Assembly (NCBI GenBank): GCA_017676145.1 | Contig: GCA_017676145.1_3628.1 | Reading direction: 5' to 3' (one strand) | Origin: a phage | DNA: 64,000 nt | Shown here: one piece after another, positions 970 through 31,852 of the stretch | Numbering within the stretch: position 1 is the stretch's first letter | How the letters are laid out: each line of letters starts with the position of its first letter | Notes under the pieces: generated by a model | The model's input: only the letters and a program-made list of their open reading frames with translations | What the model was told of the DNA's origin: nothing | Database searches by the model: none | Translations under genes and position numbers: made by a program

Positions 970-1248
970 ATGAGCTGCGAAAAATCTTTTTTCATCATCA
1001 TTTACGGCAAGGATAACTGCCCACATTGTGTAAGAGCAAAAGAATTTGCAGTCAGCAAAGGCATACCTTTCGTATACAAGACGCTAGGTGAGGGATACAC
1101 AAAAGAAGAGCTTATCGAGAAGTGTAGCCCATTTGTTCCCAGAACGTTGCCTCAGATCTTCTTGGAAAGCAACCTTGACAGTATCCACATAGGTGGTGCT
1201 GACGATTTCATCTCTTTTGTTAAGAATGGTTTTGGAGAGAAAAAGTGA
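970..1248 (+). CDS. glutaredoxin-like redoxin (NrdH/NrdC-like), 92 aa
   Basis: C-P-H-C active-site motif near N-terminus (YGKDNCPHCVRAK), size and fold pattern of glutaredoxin; stop overlaps nrdD start (GTGA). Confidence 0.7.
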   Translation: MSCEKSFFIIIYGKDNCPHCVRAKEFAVSKGIPFVYKTLGEGYTKEELIEKCSPFVPRTLPQIFLESNLDSIHIGGADDFISFVKNGFGEKK

Positions 1249-2105
1249 AAGTTGTAAAACGGGACGGTAGAGAAGAGTTTTATAACGGAATTAAGGTGAT
1301 CAAGGCGGCAGAGTCCGCCTTACTTGAGTCTGGACATACTGAAGAAGAAGCTTACCGGATTGCCTGTGCGGTTAATGAAGTTGTTGCCAACAATCTGCCA
1401 ACCGACCAGTGCACGATCTCTGTAAAAAATATCCATATCCTTGTTGAAGATGCTCTTATGGATATGGGTTTAAAATGTGCAGCCAGAGAATACATCCAGT
1501 ATAGACAGACAAGAGATAATAACAGAGAGGCAGGTGGAAAACTGCTTGCAGATATTAGTGGCTTCTTGGATCGTACTTGTGATGAATTTACAAAAGAAAA
1601 CGCAAATAAGCCTACTAATCATGTACACACTCATCGTGACCTGCTTGCAGGCATCCTTAGCAAACACCTTGCATCAACACAGATCCTGCCAGATCGTGTC
1701 TCAGAAGAGCACAACAAGGGCTTCATCCATGTGCATGATCTTGACTACTTGATCAGCCCGTTAACAAACTGTTGTTTGGTGAATTATCCGGATATGCTGG
1801 AAAACGGATTCAACATTGGCAACGCCCATGTCAGTAAGCCGAAGTCAATAGGGGTTGCAACAACAATCCTTAGCCAAATCTCTAGTGCAGTAGCTAGTGC
1901 TCAATATGGTGGTCAGACCATGAGCCATATTGATCATTATCTGGCACAGTATGCTGAAGCAACCTACGAGAAGAACCTTAAATTTTGTCAGGAACATTGG
2001 TTGCCAGATGCTGAGACTGTTGCAATGCAAATGACAGATAAAGACGTGTTTGATAGTATGCAAACTTTGCTCTACCAAATCAATACGTTAACTTCTGTCA
2101 ACGGT
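1245..2105 (+). CDS. nrdD: anaerobic ribonucleoside-triphosphate reductase NrdD, exon 1 (ATP-cone and N-terminal half)
   Basis: N-terminal ATP-cone (MKVVKRDGREEFYNGIKV). ORF stops at 2106-2108 exactly where the NrdD-like sequence is interrupted; C-terminal half resumes in the same frame at 2904. Confidence 0.8.
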
Positions 2106-2903
2106 TAACAAACTGGCCGTTGTAAAACTCTCCTAACCTCATAAGAGGGGTCGGTAAATCCGGCTAACGGGGAACGCTAAGGCGAAAGCTATGCCAATCC
2201 CGTGACTAGTTCTTACAGGAGTTGGAACGGTTGTAACGACTAACGAAAGGCAGAGATGCTTGACAAACATTTCTGAACCGAGTAGTGTAGGGGTTAGTTG
2301 AAATACTAACTTCGAAAGGGAGAGACTCTATGAAAAAGATCATTCTTAATGGTGAAGAATCGAACTACGTGATTGATGAGGTGGGAAACGTATACGGAAA
2401 ACGTGGAATGCTGCACCCCATATTGTGGGGAGGTTATGGAAAAGGTAACAAGCATGTTAAACGCCGCTATATGTATTCTTTCAACCACAAAGGTAAGAAG
2501 ATTCGAATCCAAACTTCAAGGGTTGTTGCCTTGTATTGTTTGCCAGATGTCCCAGAAGACCCTGAAAACTGGGAAGTGAATCATAAAGATGGCAATACAT
2601 TGAATGATCATCCGTCTAACCTAGAGTGGGTTTTGCCGGAAGATAATAAGAGACATGCTTTCCGAACAGGGCTTTGTCCAGGCAAGTGCTACAGGAAAGT
2701 GCAGGCATACCAAGGGAAAACCTTGGTGGGTGAATATCCTTCACTCTATGCCTGTGCAAAAGCCTTAAATTTGAACGTAGGGAACGTCCATAGGGCTATC
2801 GAAGGAAATGCCGAAGGTAAGCATCTCACAATAAAGGGTTATTATCTTATTGAAGTAGAGTAAGAGATAGTCTGGCCCTGTGGAAACACAGGGGTGGAGA
2901 CAG
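2106..2903 (+). mobile_element. group I self-splicing intron in nrdD carrying an HNH homing endonuclease ORF
   Basis: 798 nt (multiple of 3) between two NrdD halves. Exon 1 ends in U (caacggt) that can pair with downstream ccgttg (P1/IGS-like). Intron ends in G. GACUA / UAGUC P7-like elements flank the ORF. Predicted junction gives ...TSVNG/QTPFITL. Confidence 0.6.
2330..2863 (+). CDS. intron-encoded HNH homing endonuclease, 177 aa
   Basis: HNH motif VNHKDGNTLNDHPSNLEWV; located entirely inside the nrdD intervening sequence; ATG preceded by purine-rich SD. Confidence 0.75.
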   Translation: MKKIILNGEESNYVIDEVGNVYGKRGMLHPILWGGYGKGNKHVKRRYMYSFNHKGKKIRIQTSRVVALYCLPDVPEDPENWEVNHKDGNTLNDHPSNLEWVLPEDNKRHAFRTGLCPGKCYRKVQAYQGKTLVGEYPSLYACAKALNLNVGNVHRAIEGNAEGKHLTIKGYYLIEVE

Positions 2904-4163
2904 CAGACTCCATTCATCACATTAAGTTTAGGGCTAGATACCTCGGTCTTTGGTAGAATGATTACCAAAAACTACTTGAAAGTTCACAAAATGGGTCTTG
3001 GTGAAGAACGGATCACACCTGTGTTCCCTAAAGTGCTGTTCTTCTTAGAGGAGGGTGTCAACATGAACCCTGGGGATCCTAACTACGATTTGAAACGATT
3101 GGCTCTAGAATGTTCTGCAGAGCGGATTTATCCTGACTTTGTTTCTGTTCCGCTGAATCGTAAAGTGACAGGTTCAACAGACGGCAAAGTAACAAGCATG
3201 GGATGTAGGTCGTTCCTTGGCAAATATGTTACACCGGAGGGTGATGAAAAATACCTTGGCAGATTCAACTTGGGTGTTGTTAGCCTTAACCTACCAATGA
3301 TTGCGGCAAAAGCTAAGACGGAAGGTATTGATTTCTTTGCAGTTCTTGACGAATACTTGGATCTTGCATACGAGGCTCACCTTGTAAGGGTTAACCGTCT
3401 AAAAGGAACAAAGGCAGGGCAGAACCCTATCATGTGGTGTGAAGGAGCTCTTGCTCGCCTGGATCCTGAAGAGAGTATCGATAAACTCTTCTATGACGGG
3501 TACGCTTCCATCAGTATTGGGTATATTGGTGTGTATGAAACCTGTCAGATTTTGGGCAGAGAGGGTGACAAGGCTTTAGCTCTTGGAATCCTTCAGCACA
3601 TGAAAGATGCTTGTGAGCGATACAAGAAGGAAAGTGGACTAGCATTTAGCTTGTACGGCACACCTTCTGAGAGTTTATGCTATAAAGCTGCAACCTGTCT
3701 GGATCGTGAATACCCAGAAGTGTTGAAGCACGAGCATGAATACCTCACCAACAGTTTCCATCAGCCAGTATGGATCAATAGCTCGCCTTTTGATAAGTGG
3801 AAGTATGAGGAAGGTTTTGCTATGATCTCCTCTGGTGGTAACATTGGGTACATAGAGACACCAAATCTGAAAAACAACTTAGATGCTTTGGAAGCTCTTG
3901 TTGATTTCGGATATAAACACATTATGTATTTTGGTATTAACCAGCCTGTGGATAAATGTCTTAAGTGTGGATTCTCTGGTGAGTTCAGTGCAACAGCTAA
4001 AGGCTTTGTATGCCCAGAGTGTGGAAACCATGAAGAGGGAACGATCAGTGTGATTAGACGTGTATCCGGGTATCTATCCAGTCCAAACTCCCGTCCTTAC
4101 AATAAAGGTAAGCAAGCGGAGGTTATAGAACGGGTTAAGCACTACGGAAGTTGTGGTTGCTGA
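2904..4163 (+). CDS. nrdD: anaerobic ribonucleoside-triphosphate reductase NrdD, exon 2 (C-terminal half with glycyl-radical domain)
   Basis: C-terminal zinc ribbon (CLKCG...CPECG) and glycyl-radical motif RVSGYL; in frame with exon 1 after removal of 2106-2903. Confidence 0.8.
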   Translation, partial: QTPFITLSLGLDTSVFGRMITKNYLKVHKMGLGEERITPVFPKVLFFLEEGVNMNPGDPNYDLKRLALECSAERIYPDFVSVPLNRKVTGSTDGKVTSMGCRSFLGKYVTPEGDEKYLGRFNLGVVSLNLPMIAAKAKTEGIDFFAVLDEYLDLAYEAHLVRVNRLKGTKAGQNPIMWCEGALARLDPEESIDKLFYDGYASISIGYIGVYETCQILGREGDKALALGILQHMKDACERYKKESGLAFSLYGTPSESLCYKAATCLDREYPEVLKHEHEYLTNSFHQPVWINSSPFDKWKYEEGFAMISSGGNIGYIETPNLKNNLDALEALVDFGYKHIMYFGINQPVDKCLKCGFSGEFSATAKGFVCPECGNHEEGTISVIRRVSGYLSSPNSRPYNKGKQAEVIERVKHYGSCGC

Positions 4164-12603: not shown

Positions 12604-12888
12604 ATGAGCAATGGTGTCAGTAACAGTGCTGCAGAGTTTAAAGTGATCTGTAAAGGAACTTATTGGATAGTGAAACAGAAGGTGTACCTATTCGGTTTCA
12701 TACCGTTTTGGCAGAGATTTTGCTGGGGAGCTAACGAGCTTAAGAGATACGCTACCAAGTCTATGGCACTTATTGGTATAGCTGAATACATTGCTGCCAG
12801 AGACAGAGAGGGGAAAACTTGTTACTACACTGCTGACGAGATTCGTAACAGTGTTTACGTTCCACAACCGCCCGATGGAGACCGCTGA
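12604..12888 (+). CDS. hypothetical protein (94 aa)
   Basis: Track ORF with aaaaggagaag SD. Confidence 0.5.
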   Translation: MSNGVSNSAAEFKVICKGTYWIVKQKVYLFGFIPFWQRFCWGANELKRYATKSMALIGIAEYIAARDREGKTCYYTADEIRNSVYVPQPPDGDR

Positions 12889-13112
12889 TGAAAGTTAAAG
12901 TTTTAGATTCAAACTTCTATATTGGTCAAGAGCCTTTAGTTGGAAAAGTGTTTACCGCTATCCCTAACGAAGATTATCCTGACCTTTTAAAAATAAAAGG
13001 GGAAGATCTTATTGCCGCTGGCGCGTCTCAGGAATGCTTTGACAGTCAGTGGACCTACAACTTTGCCCTAGGGGAGGATGTGGAGGTAGTGGAGGACGAT
13101 TATGAAGGTTAA
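12888..13112 (+). CDS. small protein, MKVK...EVVEE family member (first gene of duplicated triplet A)
   Basis: MKVKVLDSNFYIGQ..IKGEDLIAAGA...VEVVEDDYEG; ATGA overlap with upstream gene. Confidence 0.55.
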   Translation: MKVKVLDSNFYIGQEPLVGKVFTAIPNEDYPDLLKIKGEDLIAAGASQECFDSQWTYNFALGEDVEVVEDDYEG

Positions 13113-13356
13113 AATTCTTGACTCTAACGTCTACTTGGGACAATCATTCCTGAAGGGAAAGGTCGTACCTGCTGTATACTTCGAAGGGTTGCCGTGGGAT
13201 GATCCTGTGCGGCAAAATCACAGCCATGTAGGCCACAATGTGGTGTTCATTTTGGGATCAGACCTGATCGCGGCTGGTGCCCCGGAATATTATTTCGGAG
13301 ATGACTCGTATTATGCCTTTGGGGTAGGGTCAGATGCAGATATTTTAGAGCCGTGA
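13102..13356 (+). CDS. small protein, MKVK family member (triplet A, gene 2)
   Basis: MKVKILDSNVYLGQ...LGSDLIAAGA; paralogous to 12888 and 9266 ORFs. Confidence 0.55.
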   Translation: MKVKILDSNVYLGQSFLKGKVVPAVYFEGLPWDDPVRQNHSHVGHNVVFILGSDLIAAGAPEYYFGDDSYYAFGVGSDADILEP

Positions 13357-13767
13357 TTGGGGACTGTTGTGAAAAATAAACTGTTCAAAGTTACAATGAA
13401 AATTCGCGGAGCTTGGAGCGTAAAGCAAGGGCGTATCCCGGAATTTGAGAAAGACTTCTACGTAGTCTCTACCTCTGAAGAGGCTGCATGCTGGCAGGCT
13501 GGCTATGCCTACGCAAGAACTTGGTACGAAGGGTACCAGACTGGGGGCTATGACGGAGAAATTGTCAGTAAGGGTGTGGAAGAAATTAATGTGTTGACAA
13601 GTGAAAAAGTTTTTGTTATAGTACATCCTGATTCCAGAGTGAAGCATTACTGGAATGCCAGAACAAAAACCTGGACACCGTTTGCAGATTCTGCTACACC
13701 ACTTTTAAACCAGAAAGCTCTTGACTCTGCCCCGAGCTACGGGGTTGTTGAAGAAAAGATAAGCTGA
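13357..13767 (+). CDS. hypothetical protein (about 130 aa), paralog of 15571..15966 (triplet A, gene 3)
   Basis: Shares HP..S.V.HYW...T.TWTP block with 15571 ORF; exact start uncertain (TTG 13357 / GTG 13369 / ATG 13396). Confidence 0.45.
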   Translation: MGTVVKNKLFKVTMKIRGAWSVKQGRIPEFEKDFYVVSTSEEAACWQAGYAYARTWYEGYQTGGYDGEIVSKGVEEINVLTSEKVFVIVHPDSRVKHYWNARTKTWTPFADSATPLLNQKALDSAPSYGVVEEKIS

Positions 13768-13784
13768 AATAGTGGGGTACTTAC

Positions 13785-14075
13785 ATGATGGATTTAGTTT
13801 TGGATACTGATAACACCGAATCGTTTAAAAAAGATGGTGTAATAAGCATGGACCAATCCTGCCATGCCAAGATTGACTCAAAATGGACCTACAAGTTTGA
13901 CGGTGAGATCTTCGCAAATGATGAGAAGGTCGTGGATGCTGTAGCCATTTTAAAAGCTTTAGGGTATGACCCTGTGAACTCATTGATCAAGGATCCTGTT
14001 GAGTTTGCAGAGTATGTTCGTAAAATGGCAGATCTTGCAGTGGATATTTTAAAAACTATCGACGACAAGCTGTAA
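13785..14075 (+). CDS. hypothetical protein (96 aa)
   Basis: Track ORF with ggggta SD. Confidence 0.5.
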   Translation: MMDLVLDTDNTESFKKDGVISMDQSCHAKIDSKWTYKFDGEIFANDEKVVDAVAILKALGYDPVNSLIKDPVEFAEYVRKMADLAVDILKTIDDKL

Positions 14076-14081
14076 AAACTG

Positions 14082-14110
14082 TTGACACAACATTTGATCT
14101 TTAGTATCAT
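14082..14110 (+). promoter_or_regulatory. sigma70-like promoter (TTGACA-17-TATCAT) upstream of hpf-like gene, followed by 5' UTR hairpin
   Basis: ttgacacaacatttgatctttagtatcat, then gaggg-tttggtt-ccctc hairpin (about 14121-14137), aaggag SD, ATG 14158. Confidence 0.5.
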
Positions 14111-14157
14111 TATTTTCAAAGAGGGTTTGGTTCCCTCTTCTTTAAAAGGAGCACGTT

Positions 14158-14475
14158 ATGCAGATTGAAATCACTGGCAACGTAGAGATCACTGAAGGTA
14201 TGGTGTCTTTCATTTCCCACAAAATGTCCAAACTGGAGCGTTTGCACCCATCTGCCAACTATGCACGTGTGAGTGTAAAAGTTGAAAATGATCACCAGGA
14301 AGTTATGGCTTTTATTTTTGACAATTCTGGGAAAGAAGTTATCGCCAAAGCTAAAGGTAGCGATGCTTACGAGGCAACTGACCGTATGGTGGATGTTGCA
14401 GCACGCCAGTTGGCTAAATGCGGTGGAAAGAAAGGTAAGGGAAAAGGTAAAGTAAAGATTGACTTTTGGGATTGA
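14158..14475 (+). CDS. hpf: ribosome hibernation promoting factor / RaiA (S30AE family) homolog
   Basis: N-terminus MQIEITGNVEITEG and ...AARQLAK closely parallel E. coli HPF (MQLNITGNNVEITEA...LARQLTK); 105 aa with Lys/Gly-rich tail. Confidence 0.75.
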   Translation: MQIEITGNVEITEGMVSFISHKMSKLERLHPSANYARVSVKVENDHQEVMAFIFDNSGKEVIAKAKGSDAYEATDRMVDVAARQLAKCGGKKGKGKGKVKIDFWD

Positions 14476-14484
14476 GGTGCTACA

Positions 14485-14586
14485 ATGGGTATGATTAAGA
14501 AATTAGTCCCAAATGTAGAGATTGCATGCTTTGAAATTATGTTTGCAATCGCAGTTGTAGTTAATGTGTTAGGTTACGGCTATTAA
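14485..14586 (+). CDS. micro-ORF encoding hydrophobic peptide (33 aa)
   Basis: ATG 5 nt after gaggtg SD; MGMIKKLVPNVEIACFEIMFAIAVVVNVLGYGY. Not on track. Confidence 0.3.
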   Translation: MGMIKKLVPNVEIACFEIMFAIAVVVNVLGYGY

Positions 14587-14612
14587 TATCAAATAATTGA
14601 GGAGACCTCTAA

Positions 14613-14882
14613 ATGAAAATTAAATTATTCAAAACTGAGCTGGCAGACAAAAACTGCGGACTGGTTGAAGGCATGATCGTTGAAGCACAACCAGTGGACT
14701 ACATGAAGGTGGTTCGTGATGCTCTGGGTGAAGGTTTTGATCTGATGGAGCCAGCTCTGCGAGAAGATGTCATCGAGATGGCTAAAAAGCACACACCGGA
14801 AGGTTTGGTAGTGTTTGTTGCTCCAGGTAACGGAGAAGAGTTGATTGTAACTCCGGATGTGTATGAGGTTGTAGAGGAGTAA
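14613..14882 (+). CDS. small protein with C-terminal YEVVEE (family-related)
   Basis: MKIKLF start, ends VYEVVEE; gaggagacc SD. Confidence 0.55.
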   Translation: MKIKLFKTELADKNCGLVEGMIVEAQPVDYMKVVRDALGEGFDLMEPALREDVIEMAKKHTPEGLVVFVAPGNGEELIVTPDVYEVVEE

Positions 14883-14970
14883 TCTTGGGTTAGCCATACT
14901 TCCTCGACAAGAAAGGTTTGTAATTATTTGCGGGAAAGGAATCCCCATCTCTTACCAGAGGTGATACTGT

Positions 14971-15234
14971 ATGATTGTTTATTTTAAAACTTCAGGTGGA
15001 TACCCTGATTCTCAAAGCTTGATTGGAAAAACGTGCACAGCATACTCGCCTCTTGATGATGAGGTAAGTGATACCCTACGAAATATGTATCGGATTGATC
15101 CACAAGAAGCTTTTGATCAGAACCTTGTATTTGTCAAGGGCTCAGACATGAAGTCTTTGGGGGCATTTCCTGAAGCAGATGATAATGCTGTTTATTCGTT
15201 TATGACCCCTTTTGAAGCTATGGTTGTTGGGTGA
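14971..15234 (+). CDS. small protein, MKVK family-related (triplet B, gene 1)
   Basis: ...VKGSDMKSLGA... core; gaggtga SD. Confidence 0.5.
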   Translation: MIVYFKTSGGYPDSQSLIGKTCTAYSPLDDEVSDTLRNMYRIDPQEAFDQNLVFVKGSDMKSLGAFPEADDNAVYSFMTPFEAMVVG

Positions 15235-15238
15235 GAAT

Positions 15239-15571
15239 ATGAAAGTACGCTTTATTGGTGAAACAATTCCTGTGCATCTCCGGTCGCCTGAGGATTCTGC
15301 AGATCTTGCATCTCAAAAGGCCAGAGGGTATGATAAGAAAGTAATCTCAACCGATGTAGAGCTTGAGGCTACCAGTCTGCCTGACCCTGCTGCATTCTTT
15401 AATCATTATGGATACTATTTCAGCAATCTGATGAATATCGGTGAGCTTGTGTTTATTAGTGGTGGAGAAATAGTTAGCAAGCTTGGCGGCGATCCGGATG
15501 TCTTTCATGAAACCTGCCCTTTTGCATTTGTGGTAGGTTCAGATGTGGAAGTTATTGAGGAGGTGCGGTAA
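15239..15571 (+). CDS. small protein, MKVK family member (triplet B, gene 2)
   Basis: ATG at M10 of track ORF 15212..15571 (MKVRFIGE); C-terminal VEVIEEVR. Confidence 0.5.
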   Translation: MKVRFIGETIPVHLRSPEDSADLASQKARGYDKKVISTDVELEATSLPDPAAFFNHYGYYFSNLMNIGELVFISGGEIVSKLGGDPDVFHETCPFAFVVGSDVEVIEEVR

Positions 15572-15966
15572 TGGTAAGTCTATACCGTGTTGAGTATAGC
15601 TCAGATACTGTATACAACGTAAGAAGCAAAGATCGTAGCGACAGAGTGCAAGAAATGTATGTTCTTGCCGACAGTCCGTTATCTGCAGCGTTTAAGGCAG
15701 GAGCTCTTGCATCTCGTTGGAAATTCGAGGGTGGATCTTTCTATGAAGAAACTCTTGAAGATTCTGTTGTTATTTCTTCTGTAGAGGTTTCAACTGACTA
15801 CGAAGGGAAAAAGTTCGTAATGCGGCACCCACACAGCAACATTGCGTACTACTGGGATGTTCTGAACAACGAGTGGACTCCAGATCTTCAGAAGGCCACT
15901 GTTCTGACTCCGTTCTTGGCAGATAAGTTCCCACCAGAAGGTAATTTATCTGCACTGTTTCAGTAA
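15571..15966 (+). CDS. hypothetical protein (131 aa), paralog of 13357..13767 (triplet B, gene 3)
   Basis: Shares RHPHSNIAYYW...NEWTP block with 13357 ORF. Confidence 0.5.
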   Translation: MVSLYRVEYSSDTVYNVRSKDRSDRVQEMYVLADSPLSAAFKAGALASRWKFEGGSFYEETLEDSVVISSVEVSTDYEGKKFVMRHPHSNIAYYWDVLNNEWTPDLQKATVLTPFLADKFPPEGNLSALFQ

Positions 15967-16045: not shown

Positions 16046-16303
16046 ATGAAGATTAAATTGAAAAACCTTGAAATGGCAGAGGTTCAGGAAGGTGTTGATT
16101 TCCGCTCTAAAGATGGCGACATCTTAGAGGCGAATATCCCGACCTATAAGTTGATTAAAGGTTTTGGCAACGTTCCTGAAGAGGATATTACAGACATTCT
16201 TATGATGTTGATCCTTGACGGGACCGTGTTTGTAGGTGAAGGTGAGAACGCTATTGCAATCCCAGGCCATTTTTATGAAGTAGTTGACGAAGAGGTGCTG
16301 TAA
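16046..16303 (+). CDS. small acidic protein with C-terminal YEVVDEEVL (family-related)
   Basis: ATG at M2 of track ORF; acaggag SD. Confidence 0.5.
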   Translation: MKIKLKNLEMAEVQEGVDFRSKDGDILEANIPTYKLIKGFGNVPEEDITDILMMLILDGTVFVGEGENAIAIPGHFYEVVDEEVL

Positions 16304-16654
16304 ATGAAAGTAGAGATCACAGGTTTTGATATGAATGTGGTTCCGGAAGATATTTTAGCTAAACTTCCGGAAGGTTTTGGTAACGGTGTTGTGGTGGATG
16401 CTGTCCCTCCTACCAAAGACATTCTGCTGCAGTATGGTGTAGCAGAGGAAGATGTCGATAAAGTTCTTACAATGATGGCAATAGACCGTGTTGTCGTTGT
16501 TAAAGGTCTTGAAGGTTTTGATGACGATCCTCTGATTATTCGTGGTGATGACTATCGCATCATCGACAACGAAGGCCAAGAGTTCTACGAACCTTCTGCT
16601 GAAGATGTTCTTAACTTACTACTGGAAGCAGGCACCGAAGAGGAGGAAGAATAA
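16304..16654 (+). CDS. hypothetical acidic protein (116 aa)
   Basis: Track ORF, ATG directly after upstream stop. Confidence 0.5.
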   Translation: MKVEITGFDMNVVPEDILAKLPEGFGNGVVVDAVPPTKDILLQYGVAEEDVDKVLTMMAIDRVVVVKGLEGFDDDPLIIRGDDYRIIDNEGQEFYEPSAEDVLNLLLEAGTEEEEE

Positions 16655-16983
16655 TGAAAATTGATCCGTTACTAAAGGCTCGTGCAGAAAAAGCATACAC
16701 TATCAAGCTGACCTCTCTGGTCCCTACTTGTCATCCGGATGTAGGTTGGCCTGAAGGCCTGGTAGAGGGGACTGTAACAGCTGCATACCTTCCTAACATC
16801 AAATACCTCATGGAGATCTTGGAGATGGATGAGGAAACGGCAGAACAGTTCCAGTTAGACATGAAGCAAAGTGGGACTCTGGTTATTCACGGGTGGTATA
16901 ATACTAAAGATGCAGAAGATCCCCTGGTAACTTCTAATCTGGCATATGAAATCTTAGGACCTTTGAACTTGGGGGAAGACTAA
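16654..16983 (+). CDS. hypothetical protein (109 aa)
   Basis: Track ORF, start overlaps upstream stop. Confidence 0.5.
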   Translation: MKIDPLLKARAEKAYTIKLTSLVPTCHPDVGWPEGLVEGTVTAAYLPNIKYLMEILEMDEETAEQFQLDMKQSGTLVIHGWYNTKDAEDPLVTSNLAYEILGPLNLGED

Positions 16984-17270
16984 TGAAAGGTTTGGTTAAG
17001 ATCAAGATTAAAGACACCAAGGGAGAACTCAGCCATTTTGGAATTAACGATGGTGACGAGCTGATCGCCCACCTGCCTACCAAGGAAGTTGTAAGCAAAG
17101 CTGTTGCCGGAGAAGAAGATGCAATGCAGGCTGCAGGTGTGGATGAAAACTATGTAGCAATGTGTATGTGCCGAGATCAGGTTGTTCTGTATAAAGCGTA
17201 TCGACCAAATGGAGCACCTGAGTGGCTTGTTTTCCGACCCGAAGGGTATGAAATTTTAGAGACGCTATGA
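16983..17270 (+). CDS. hypothetical protein (95 aa)
   Basis: Track ORF, start overlaps upstream stop. Confidence 0.5.
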   Translation: MKGLVKIKIKDTKGELSHFGINDGDELIAHLPTKEVVSKAVAGEEDAMQAAGVDENYVAMCMCRDQVVLYKAYRPNGAPEWLVFRPEGYEILETL

Positions 17271-31823: not shown

Positions 31824-31852
31824 TTGACAGCGGCCCCGCCAGGTGGCATAAT
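31824..31852 (+). promoter_or_regulatory. strong sigma70-like promoter on + strand inside the leftward block (TTGACA-17-CATAAT)
   Basis: ttgacagcggccccgccaggtggcataat; no ORF of 60 aa or more downstream on + strand; transcribes conserved GGGAGACAA / GAGAA-TATCATT elements. Confidence 0.5.

Follow-up and report, generated by a model that had tools for sequence, protein, structure and literature searches.

The gene at positions 14158–14475 (+ strand) of the window, by which we mean the whole 64,000-nt stretch of phage DNA analysed here, encodes a 105-aa protein that is almost certainly a Vequintavirus homolog of the short, gammaproteobacterial-type ribosome hibernation promoting factor (HPF), with S30AE family identity. 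It corresponds to ORF136 of Escherichia phage FV3 and to ORF144 of phage rV5. The gene and its promoter were already known: they are annotated in the rV5 GenBank record and published by Mizuno et al. (2019, Nat Commun 10:752, PMC6375957; preprint 10.1101/174177), whose Table 1 counts both the FV3 and the rV5 protein among viral HPF. New here are the distribution of the gene relative to a marker gene, the dN/dS of its core, the inventory of retained and lost rRNA-contact residues and an ortholog in a sister lineage. Modulation of host ribosomes by this protein is a hypothesis. Taking family identity and mode of action together, we lean slightly towards an HPF-type protein that would dock in the decoding channel of host ribosomes, more weakly than host HPF does, and act there in a YfiA-like manner.

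Encoding translation factors is one way in which phages may gain control of protein synthesis in the host, and cultivated coliphages carry few ribosome-associated proteins, HPF homologs among them. The phage HPF spans a large genus used in therapy and in biocontrol of E. coli O157.

Family identity, distribution and constraint

The open reading frame is as the first-pass annotation described it: it lies on the + strand, begins with ATG, specifies a protein of 105 aa with the N-terminus MQIEITGNVEITEG and contains VDVAARQLAK; the C-terminus reads CGGKKGKGKGKVKIDFWD. Two parts can be distinguished. The S30AE core (14158–14424) is delimited by the Pfam match to aa 3–88, by the AlphaFold2 model, by Foldseek and by dN/dS. 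The Lys/Gly-rich tail that the same annotation had pointed out is present at aa 90–105 (GKKGKGKGKVKIDFWD; 14425–14472) and is predicted to be disordered, judging from pLDDT and charge.

The proposed homology to HPF was borne out by profile searches, in which the curated cut-offs of both S30AE models were passed, and by structure matches. The Pfam model PF02482 (Ribosomal_S30AE) is matched with E = 1.8e-12 and 48.3 bits, against a gathering score of 23.7, and the NCBIfam model TIGR00741 (HPF/YfiA family) with 45.9 bits, against a cut-off of 40.9. The best-scoring NCBIfam model is that of short HPF, NF007780, at 55.8 bits, which is below its equivalog cut-off of 125 bits. The RaiA model NF007654 reaches 17.6 bits, below its cut-off of 158 bits, so the product name ‘RaiA’ that RefSeq gives to the phage gene is a generic label. 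Judged by these scores, the protein is of the HPF type and not of the RaiA type, and it would best be described as a homolog of enterobacterial HPF, not as an ortholog-level equivalent of either HPF or RaiA.

The top sequence matches among solved structures are those of E. coli HPF (2rql, 4v8h and 6h4n; E of about 5e-12, aa 1–89), and global identity to E. coli HPF is 41.5%. The AlphaFold2 model has a mean pLDDT of 84.7, with blocks of 89–95 over aa 1–80 and 82 for aa 81–90, and its elements (E2–7, H13–29, E33–43, E46–55, E60–67 and H70–89) superpose closely on known hibernation factors: Foldseek gave an RMSD of 0.9 Å and a TM of 0.94 on the target for V. cholerae HPF, and an RMSD of 1.1 Å and a TM of 0.90 for E. 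coli HPF within the 100S ribosome (6h4n_x). All 37 significant Foldseek matches in the PDB are hibernation factors (TM up to 0.94, RMSD 0.9–1.1 Å), and the weak matches at ranks 38–48 are dsRBD proteins. Membership in the S30AE family is secure because the Pfam, NCBIfam, solved-structure and Foldseek matches all point to it.

The phage protein belongs to PHROG family phrog_12469 and also matches phrog_8990 at E = 1.5e-6. A word-indexed homolog search returned only five proteins, all of them phage orthologs, and a scan of IMG/VR only two loci. An exhaustive HMMER search gave 22 matches, among which the nearest cellular relatives are at most 45% identical; the second match, P0006 (1160 aa, eight matched stretches), was set aside as a false positive built of PPC repeats. 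In the representative library, a cellular protein of 289 aa (P0011) carries an S30AE domain fused to a PTS EIIA-2 (PtsN-like) domain, and looks like a fusion of the adjacent rpoN-operon genes hpf and ptsN. Coliphage HPF homologs were reported to group among gammaproteobacterial sequences (PMC6375957).

The surrounding DNA is 99.2% identical in nucleotides to FV3, a rV5-like Vequintavirus (0.8% differences across 13700–15000), and the region matches 119 phage records. The protein itself is 100% identical to that of FV3 (YP_007006307/AEZ65272) and 98% identical to that of rV5 (ABI79209). Using tblastn, we found it in 119 phage records; a ClpP-like marker gene of the same window is likewise present in 119, so that both genes are equally widespread in Vequintavirus. 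In GenBank the gene goes by names that include ‘sigma 54 modulation factor’, ‘ribosome hibernation promoting factor’ and ‘RaiA’; records of the O177 and bov phages mislabel it ‘ATP-dependent protease La type I’, and others have ‘hypothetical protein’. Eighteen records labelled ‘Campylobacter phage’ (MG0656xx) are rV5-like genomes that are 95–99% identical to coliphages in the HPF gene; one of them, MG065672, is flagged UNVERIFIED, and the host assignment of the set looks doubtful.

Across codons 1–88 of 12 Vequintavirus loci, dN/dS is 0.01–0.06 at dS of 0.3–0.66. The HPF core is under very strong purifying selection, and the protein is therefore clearly functional for the phage. The gene also reaches beyond the known genus. 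A sister lineage is represented by contigs of about 125–137 kb, of which some 30% can be aligned to known Vequintaviruses; over a 6.3-kb stretch, about 30% aligns, at about 80% identity. Its ortholog (P0004, 103 aa) is 64% identical, has an intact reading frame and sits in the same gene order, which indicates that the HPF gene predates the split between the two lineages. The corresponding Vequintavirus-like loci (L002–L005: Logan contigs of up to 125.8 kb, and an NCBI ‘E. coli’ contig of 136.8 kb) are missing from the phage collection searched.

Promoter, leader and neighbouring genes

The HPF gene lies in a same-strand block of small genes. The 82-nt gap between the upstream stop codon (14073–14075) and the HPF ATG holds a promoter, a hairpin and a Shine-Dalgarno sequence. 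The last, AAGGAG at 14146–14151 (+), was read from the sequence 6 nt 5′ of the ATG; the annotations of phages Murica and Mangalyan give a ribosome binding site at the equivalent position.

A sigma70-like promoter had been claimed at 14082–14110 (+), and this holds up well. The site, TTGACA-17-TATCAT, scores 11/12 against the consensus (TTGACA at 14082–14087, TATCAT at 14105–14110) and has an A-rich stretch, gtAAAAActg, upstream. In rV5 record DQ832317, ORF144 is annotated together with a ‘Sigma70-type promoter; P144’ that equals window positions 14082–14110. The hexamers and their 17-nt spacing are kept in 12/12 Vequintavirus loci (as TATCAT or TATTAT), with many variable positions in the spacer itself, and AAACTGTTGACACA is unchanged even in the sister lineage with its 64% identity, which keeps the same −35 context. 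Between 9000 and 20000, four sites score at least 11/12, each of them on the coding strand, where a first-order Markov model predicts 0.24; none of its 300 simulations reached four. The whole window contains 19 such near-consensus sites, mostly on the local coding strand: mainly on the + strand below about 21 kb and beyond 63 kb (with one at 31824) and on the − strand between about 28 and 58 kb. This distribution suggests that the part of the genome covered here relies heavily on host RNA polymerase. We found no Vequintavirus transcriptome or expression-timing data in the literature.

The hairpin between promoter and Shine-Dalgarno sequence had been placed at about 14121–14137 and taken as a sign of regulated expression. 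The structure does exist, as a 7-bp stem-loop at 14119–14139 (+) with the sequence AAGAGGG-uuugguu-CCCUCUU and a predicted energy of −9.9 kcal/mol, and begins 1–2 nt past the inferred transcription start (about 14117–14118). The regulatory implication is not supported. The Shine-Dalgarno sequence is free, lying outside the stem, and a search of 13500–15000 against Rfam gave no match. The covariation test lends no support, with one compensated and three unpaired cells and an equally high score in 209 of 500 shuffles. The hairpin is also degraded or absent in relatives: its sequence is kept in rV5, FV3, APECc02 and phita32, is weakened by an uncompensated G-to-A change (an A·C mismatch) in Murica, V18, A6-1, Mangalyan and A141, is remodelled in one IMG/VR contig, and is missing in the sister lineage (L002), where the leader is only about 25 nt long. 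Folding of the 5′ leader is not remarkable relative to shuffled sequences (z = −0.74), and a repeat search found no family containing the promoter-hairpin module. A role as a terminator was rejected, since the hairpin is not listed by the terminator scan and only three U follow the stem. The most economical reading is that of a 5′-terminal mRNA-stabilising stem-loop or an incidental structure.

Immediately downstream, a hydrophobic 33-aa ORF (MGMIKKLVPNVEIACFEIMFAIAVVVNVLGYGY; 14485–14586, +) starts 10 nt past the HPF stop, which is overlapped by its Shine-Dalgarno sequence, GAGGTG. It is annotated in rV5 as ORF145 and has no counterpart in the sister lineage (L002). At 14459–14486 there is a promoter-like TTGACT-16-TACAAT; it is probably no promoter for this ORF, because its −10 hexamer overlaps the ATG.

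Nine small paralogous ORFs of 74–119 aa flank the HPF gene between 12888 and 17270 on the + strand (12888–13112, 13102–13356, 14613–14882, 14971–15234, 15239–15571, 16046–16303, 16304–16654, 16654–16983 and 16983–17270). Sequence comparison unites them by an MKV/MKI start, a ‘..VVFV.G..’ core and acidic C-termini; the others are 18–48% identical to the first (12888–13112). Two of them, 14613–14882 and 14971–15234, were searched against Pfam and gave no match. The 89-aa product of 14613–14882, two genes downstream of HPF, is called ‘sigma 54 modulation factor’ in PQ014731, KR698074, PQ510733 and MN8506xx. It was considered as a second HPF and rejected: it has no Pfam match and no S30AE similarity and is a member of the local family of small paralogs, and the label looks like an annotation-transfer error. 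Two further + strand ORFs, 13357–13767 and 15571–15966, are paralogs of each other (131–136 aa; BLASTP E = 3e-9, 26% identity) that share an ‘HP.S...YW....W.TP’ motif and lack a Pfam match. Considered alongside the small paralogs, this pair suggests that a gene module was duplicated and now lies on both sides of the HPF gene.

Farther away, the gene for the large subunit of anaerobic ribonucleotide reductase (1245–4163, +) is split into two ORFs, 1245–2108 and 2880–4163, with an HNH homing-endonuclease gene between them according to the FV3 annotation. No tRNA genes were found in the window.

Ribosome-contact residues and proposed mode of action

A cryo-EM study of HPF and YfiA (bioRxiv 10.1101/2025.10.07.680626) provided the list of ribosome contacts, in E. 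coli numbering, with which we compared the phage proteins. K23, K26, Q29 (as R), E44, E60, R83, K87 and K91 are kept in this phage, and all of them except E60, which is K in the sister lineage, are kept in both lineages. Five positions that the same study names among the conserved contacts are replaced (this phage or sister): K80 by V/T, K89 by G or a gap, H55 by F, T53 by F/R and R33 by S/T. The basic track of helix α2, which in E. coli contacts 16S rRNA, thus retains three of its five residues (R83, K87 and K91), K80 and K89 being lost in both lineages. Such a pattern would be consistent with weaker binding at an unchanged site, and a lower affinity could in turn mean that the protein is lost during high-salt washing.

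Compared with E. coli HPF, the phage protein has 10 additional residues and a pI of 8.7 instead of 6.5; its net charge from residue 88 onward is +4. Residues 91–105 have a pLDDT below 50 in the AlphaFold2 model. The tail sequence, CGGKKGKGKGK(V/G)KIDF, is nevertheless conserved, with variation in the last 1–3 residues (FWD, FGE, FE or F); the sister lineage has a different sequence that is also basic and ends in KWDY. Indels in G/A homopolymer runs (GGGG/AAA) of the tail-coding stretch, +1 in APECc02 and −1 in Murica, alter or truncate the tail and leave proteins of 101 aa (L008, 401–706) and 99 aa (L009, 401–700), respectively, and in the YN3 record the match ends at residue 88. These may be true slippage variants or homopolymer sequencing errors. 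Mass spectrometry detected the peptide VKIDFGE from the C-terminus of the rV5 protein (PMC6375957). The C-terminal tail of YfiA is reported to run toward the RMF site (bioRxiv 10.1101/2025.10.07.680626), and by analogy the phage tail could do likewise.

The one published binding test concerns the rV5 ortholog. When it was expressed in E. coli, its peptides were detected in the crude extract and none in the high-salt 70S or 100S fractions, and 100S levels showed no discernible change; growth phase, a genuine loss of binding and salt-induced dissociation were offered as reasons for the negative result (PMC6375957). The outcome speaks in part against the first-pass idea that a phage HPF modulates host ribosomes, but we do not regard the test as decisive, because it involved high-salt washes and uninfected, growing cells. 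Our literature search found no functional study of the phage protein beyond Mizuno et al. 2019, and the BASEL collection paper does not mention hibernation.

Based on these observations, we propose the following course of events. Host RNA polymerase would transcribe the HPF gene early in infection from P144, and the leader hairpin would more likely stabilise the mRNA than regulate it. The S30AE domain may then dock in the 30S decoding channel (the A/P-site region) of vacant host 30S or 70S ribosomes, as HPF and YfiA do, though, with some of the rRNA contacts lost, probably in a weaker or more short-lived manner than host HPF. If the polybasic tail projects beyond the HPF C-terminus toward the region of the YfiA tail and RMF, the protein would therefore be expected to silence or protect monomeric 70S in the manner of YfiA rather than to promote 100S dimers. 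The unchanged 100S levels (PMC6375957) fit such a non-dimerising mode. Several facts count against this mechanism: the rV5 ortholog was missing from the 70S and 100S fractions after high-salt isolation (PMC6375957), K80, K89, H55, T53 and R33 are replaced in this phage by V, G, F, F and S, and the scores are far below the equivalog cut-offs of 125 bits for HPF and 158 bits for RaiA. Weighing both sides, we would give attenuated, YfiA-like docking in the decoding channel an even chance.

Mizuno et al. (PMC6375957) proposed that the viral protein counters hibernation: it would compete with host HPF, YfiA and RMF and, binding weakly and blocking RMF with its tail, would prevent or dissolve stable 100S and hibernating 70S ribosomes, which would leave the ribosomes of starved hosts available to phage mRNAs and on balance promote translation. 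A weak binder of this kind would fit the partly lost α2 basic track and the loss of contacts to uS9 and m2G966. The tail also exceeds the HPF tail in length and basicity, and the same authors found S30AE genes enriched in viruses of animal-associated bacteria, whose hosts are often starved (PMC6375957). The difficulty is that an S30AE domain in the decoding channel itself blocks tRNA and mRNA; moreover, 100S levels were unchanged on expression, though the growing cells used contain few 100S particles (PMC6375957). We consider this proposal unlikely, while finding it the most credible of the alternatives. A more specific form, to which we assign a similarly low probability, is that a weakened HPF with a polybasic tail blocks the RMF/anti-Shine-Dalgarno region and out-competes HPF, YfiA and RMF right after infection, keeping the ribosomes of starved gut E. 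coli in, or bringing them back to, a form that is protected from nucleases yet quickly reusable. If so, the virus would carry a factor that counters hibernation or safeguards ribosomes, and could thereby infect stationary-phase cells productively.

A canonical HPF, which would join host RMF in making 100S dimers and so hibernate the translation of the infected cell, for example during stalled infection of starved cells, is what the nearest relatives in sequence and structure would lead one to expect, as these are short HPFs that act with RMF. The published experiment speaks against it, with no effect on 100S and the protein missing from the 100S fraction (PMC6375957), and the protein's C-terminal extension is similar to the arrangement by which YfiA and RMF become incompatible, a link that we draw by inference. 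This makes canonical activity improbable, to a greater degree than competition with the host factors.

Equally improbable, in our estimate, is that the S30AE fold has been given a new function, its dsRBD-like domain and polybasic tail binding some other phage or host RNA or protein and not the decoding centre. The absence of the protein from ribosome fractions (PMC6375957), the loss of five contact residues and the weak Foldseek matches to dsRBD proteins at ranks 38–48 would all agree with this. So would an identity to host HPF of only 41.5% in the face of strong constraint, a combination from which conservation for some phage-specific role would follow. However, contacts including R83, K87 and K91 are kept in both phage lineages, every one of the 37 significant structural matches is a hibernation factor bound to the ribosome, and nothing in the present analysis indicates an alternative partner.

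That the gene is a decaying, non-functional passenger derived from the host, as the negative ribosome-association test (PMC6375957) and the three records with frameshifted or truncated tails might suggest, is excluded for practical purposes by a dN/dS of 0.01–0.06 at dS of up to 0.66, by its presence in 119 Vequintavirus records, as many as the marker gene, by an intact reading frame in the 64%-identity sister lineage and by a conserved promoter and Shine-Dalgarno sequence. Given very strong constraint and genus-wide presence, the protein must be doing something useful. The question is thereby sharpened to whether the retained and lost rRNA contacts, with the polybasic tail, make it bind weakly or transiently as YfiA does, compete with the hibernation factors of the host, or bind RNA in a repurposed role.

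Comparison with known systems

rV5 gp144 and FV3 ORF136 are the same gene, in the same genomic position and behind the same P144, with no substantive difference from the gene described here. E. coli short HPF (YhbH; 2rql, 6h4n and 6h58) resembles the phage protein in its S30AE fold (RMSD 1.1 Å), in 41.5% of its sequence and in K23, K26, E44, E60, R83, K87 and K91; it differs in having K80, K89, H55, T53 and R33, in being 10 residues shorter and without the Lys/Gly-rich tail, and in its pI of 6.5. The genes are also organised differently: E. coli hpf is embedded in the rpoN operon, whereas the phage gene has a stand-alone sigma70 promoter within a block of phage genes.

E. coli YfiA/RaiA (protein Y; 4v8i and 1n3g) shares the fold and a C-terminal extension beyond the length of HPF. 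Its sequence match is weak (17.6 vs. 158 bits), and the phage tail is polybasic, whereas the tail of E. coli YfiA ends acidic. The lack of a stimulatory effect on 100S (PMC6375957) is a YfiA-like trait of the phage protein.

The jumbo phages Cronobacter GAP32 and Escherichia PBECO4 likewise encode proteins with an S30AE fold (phrog_8990). These are only 18–20% identical to the protein studied here and belong to a PHROG family other than phrog_12469. In the published HPF tree they are placed elsewhere (PMC6375957), a separate position that indicates independent acquisition.
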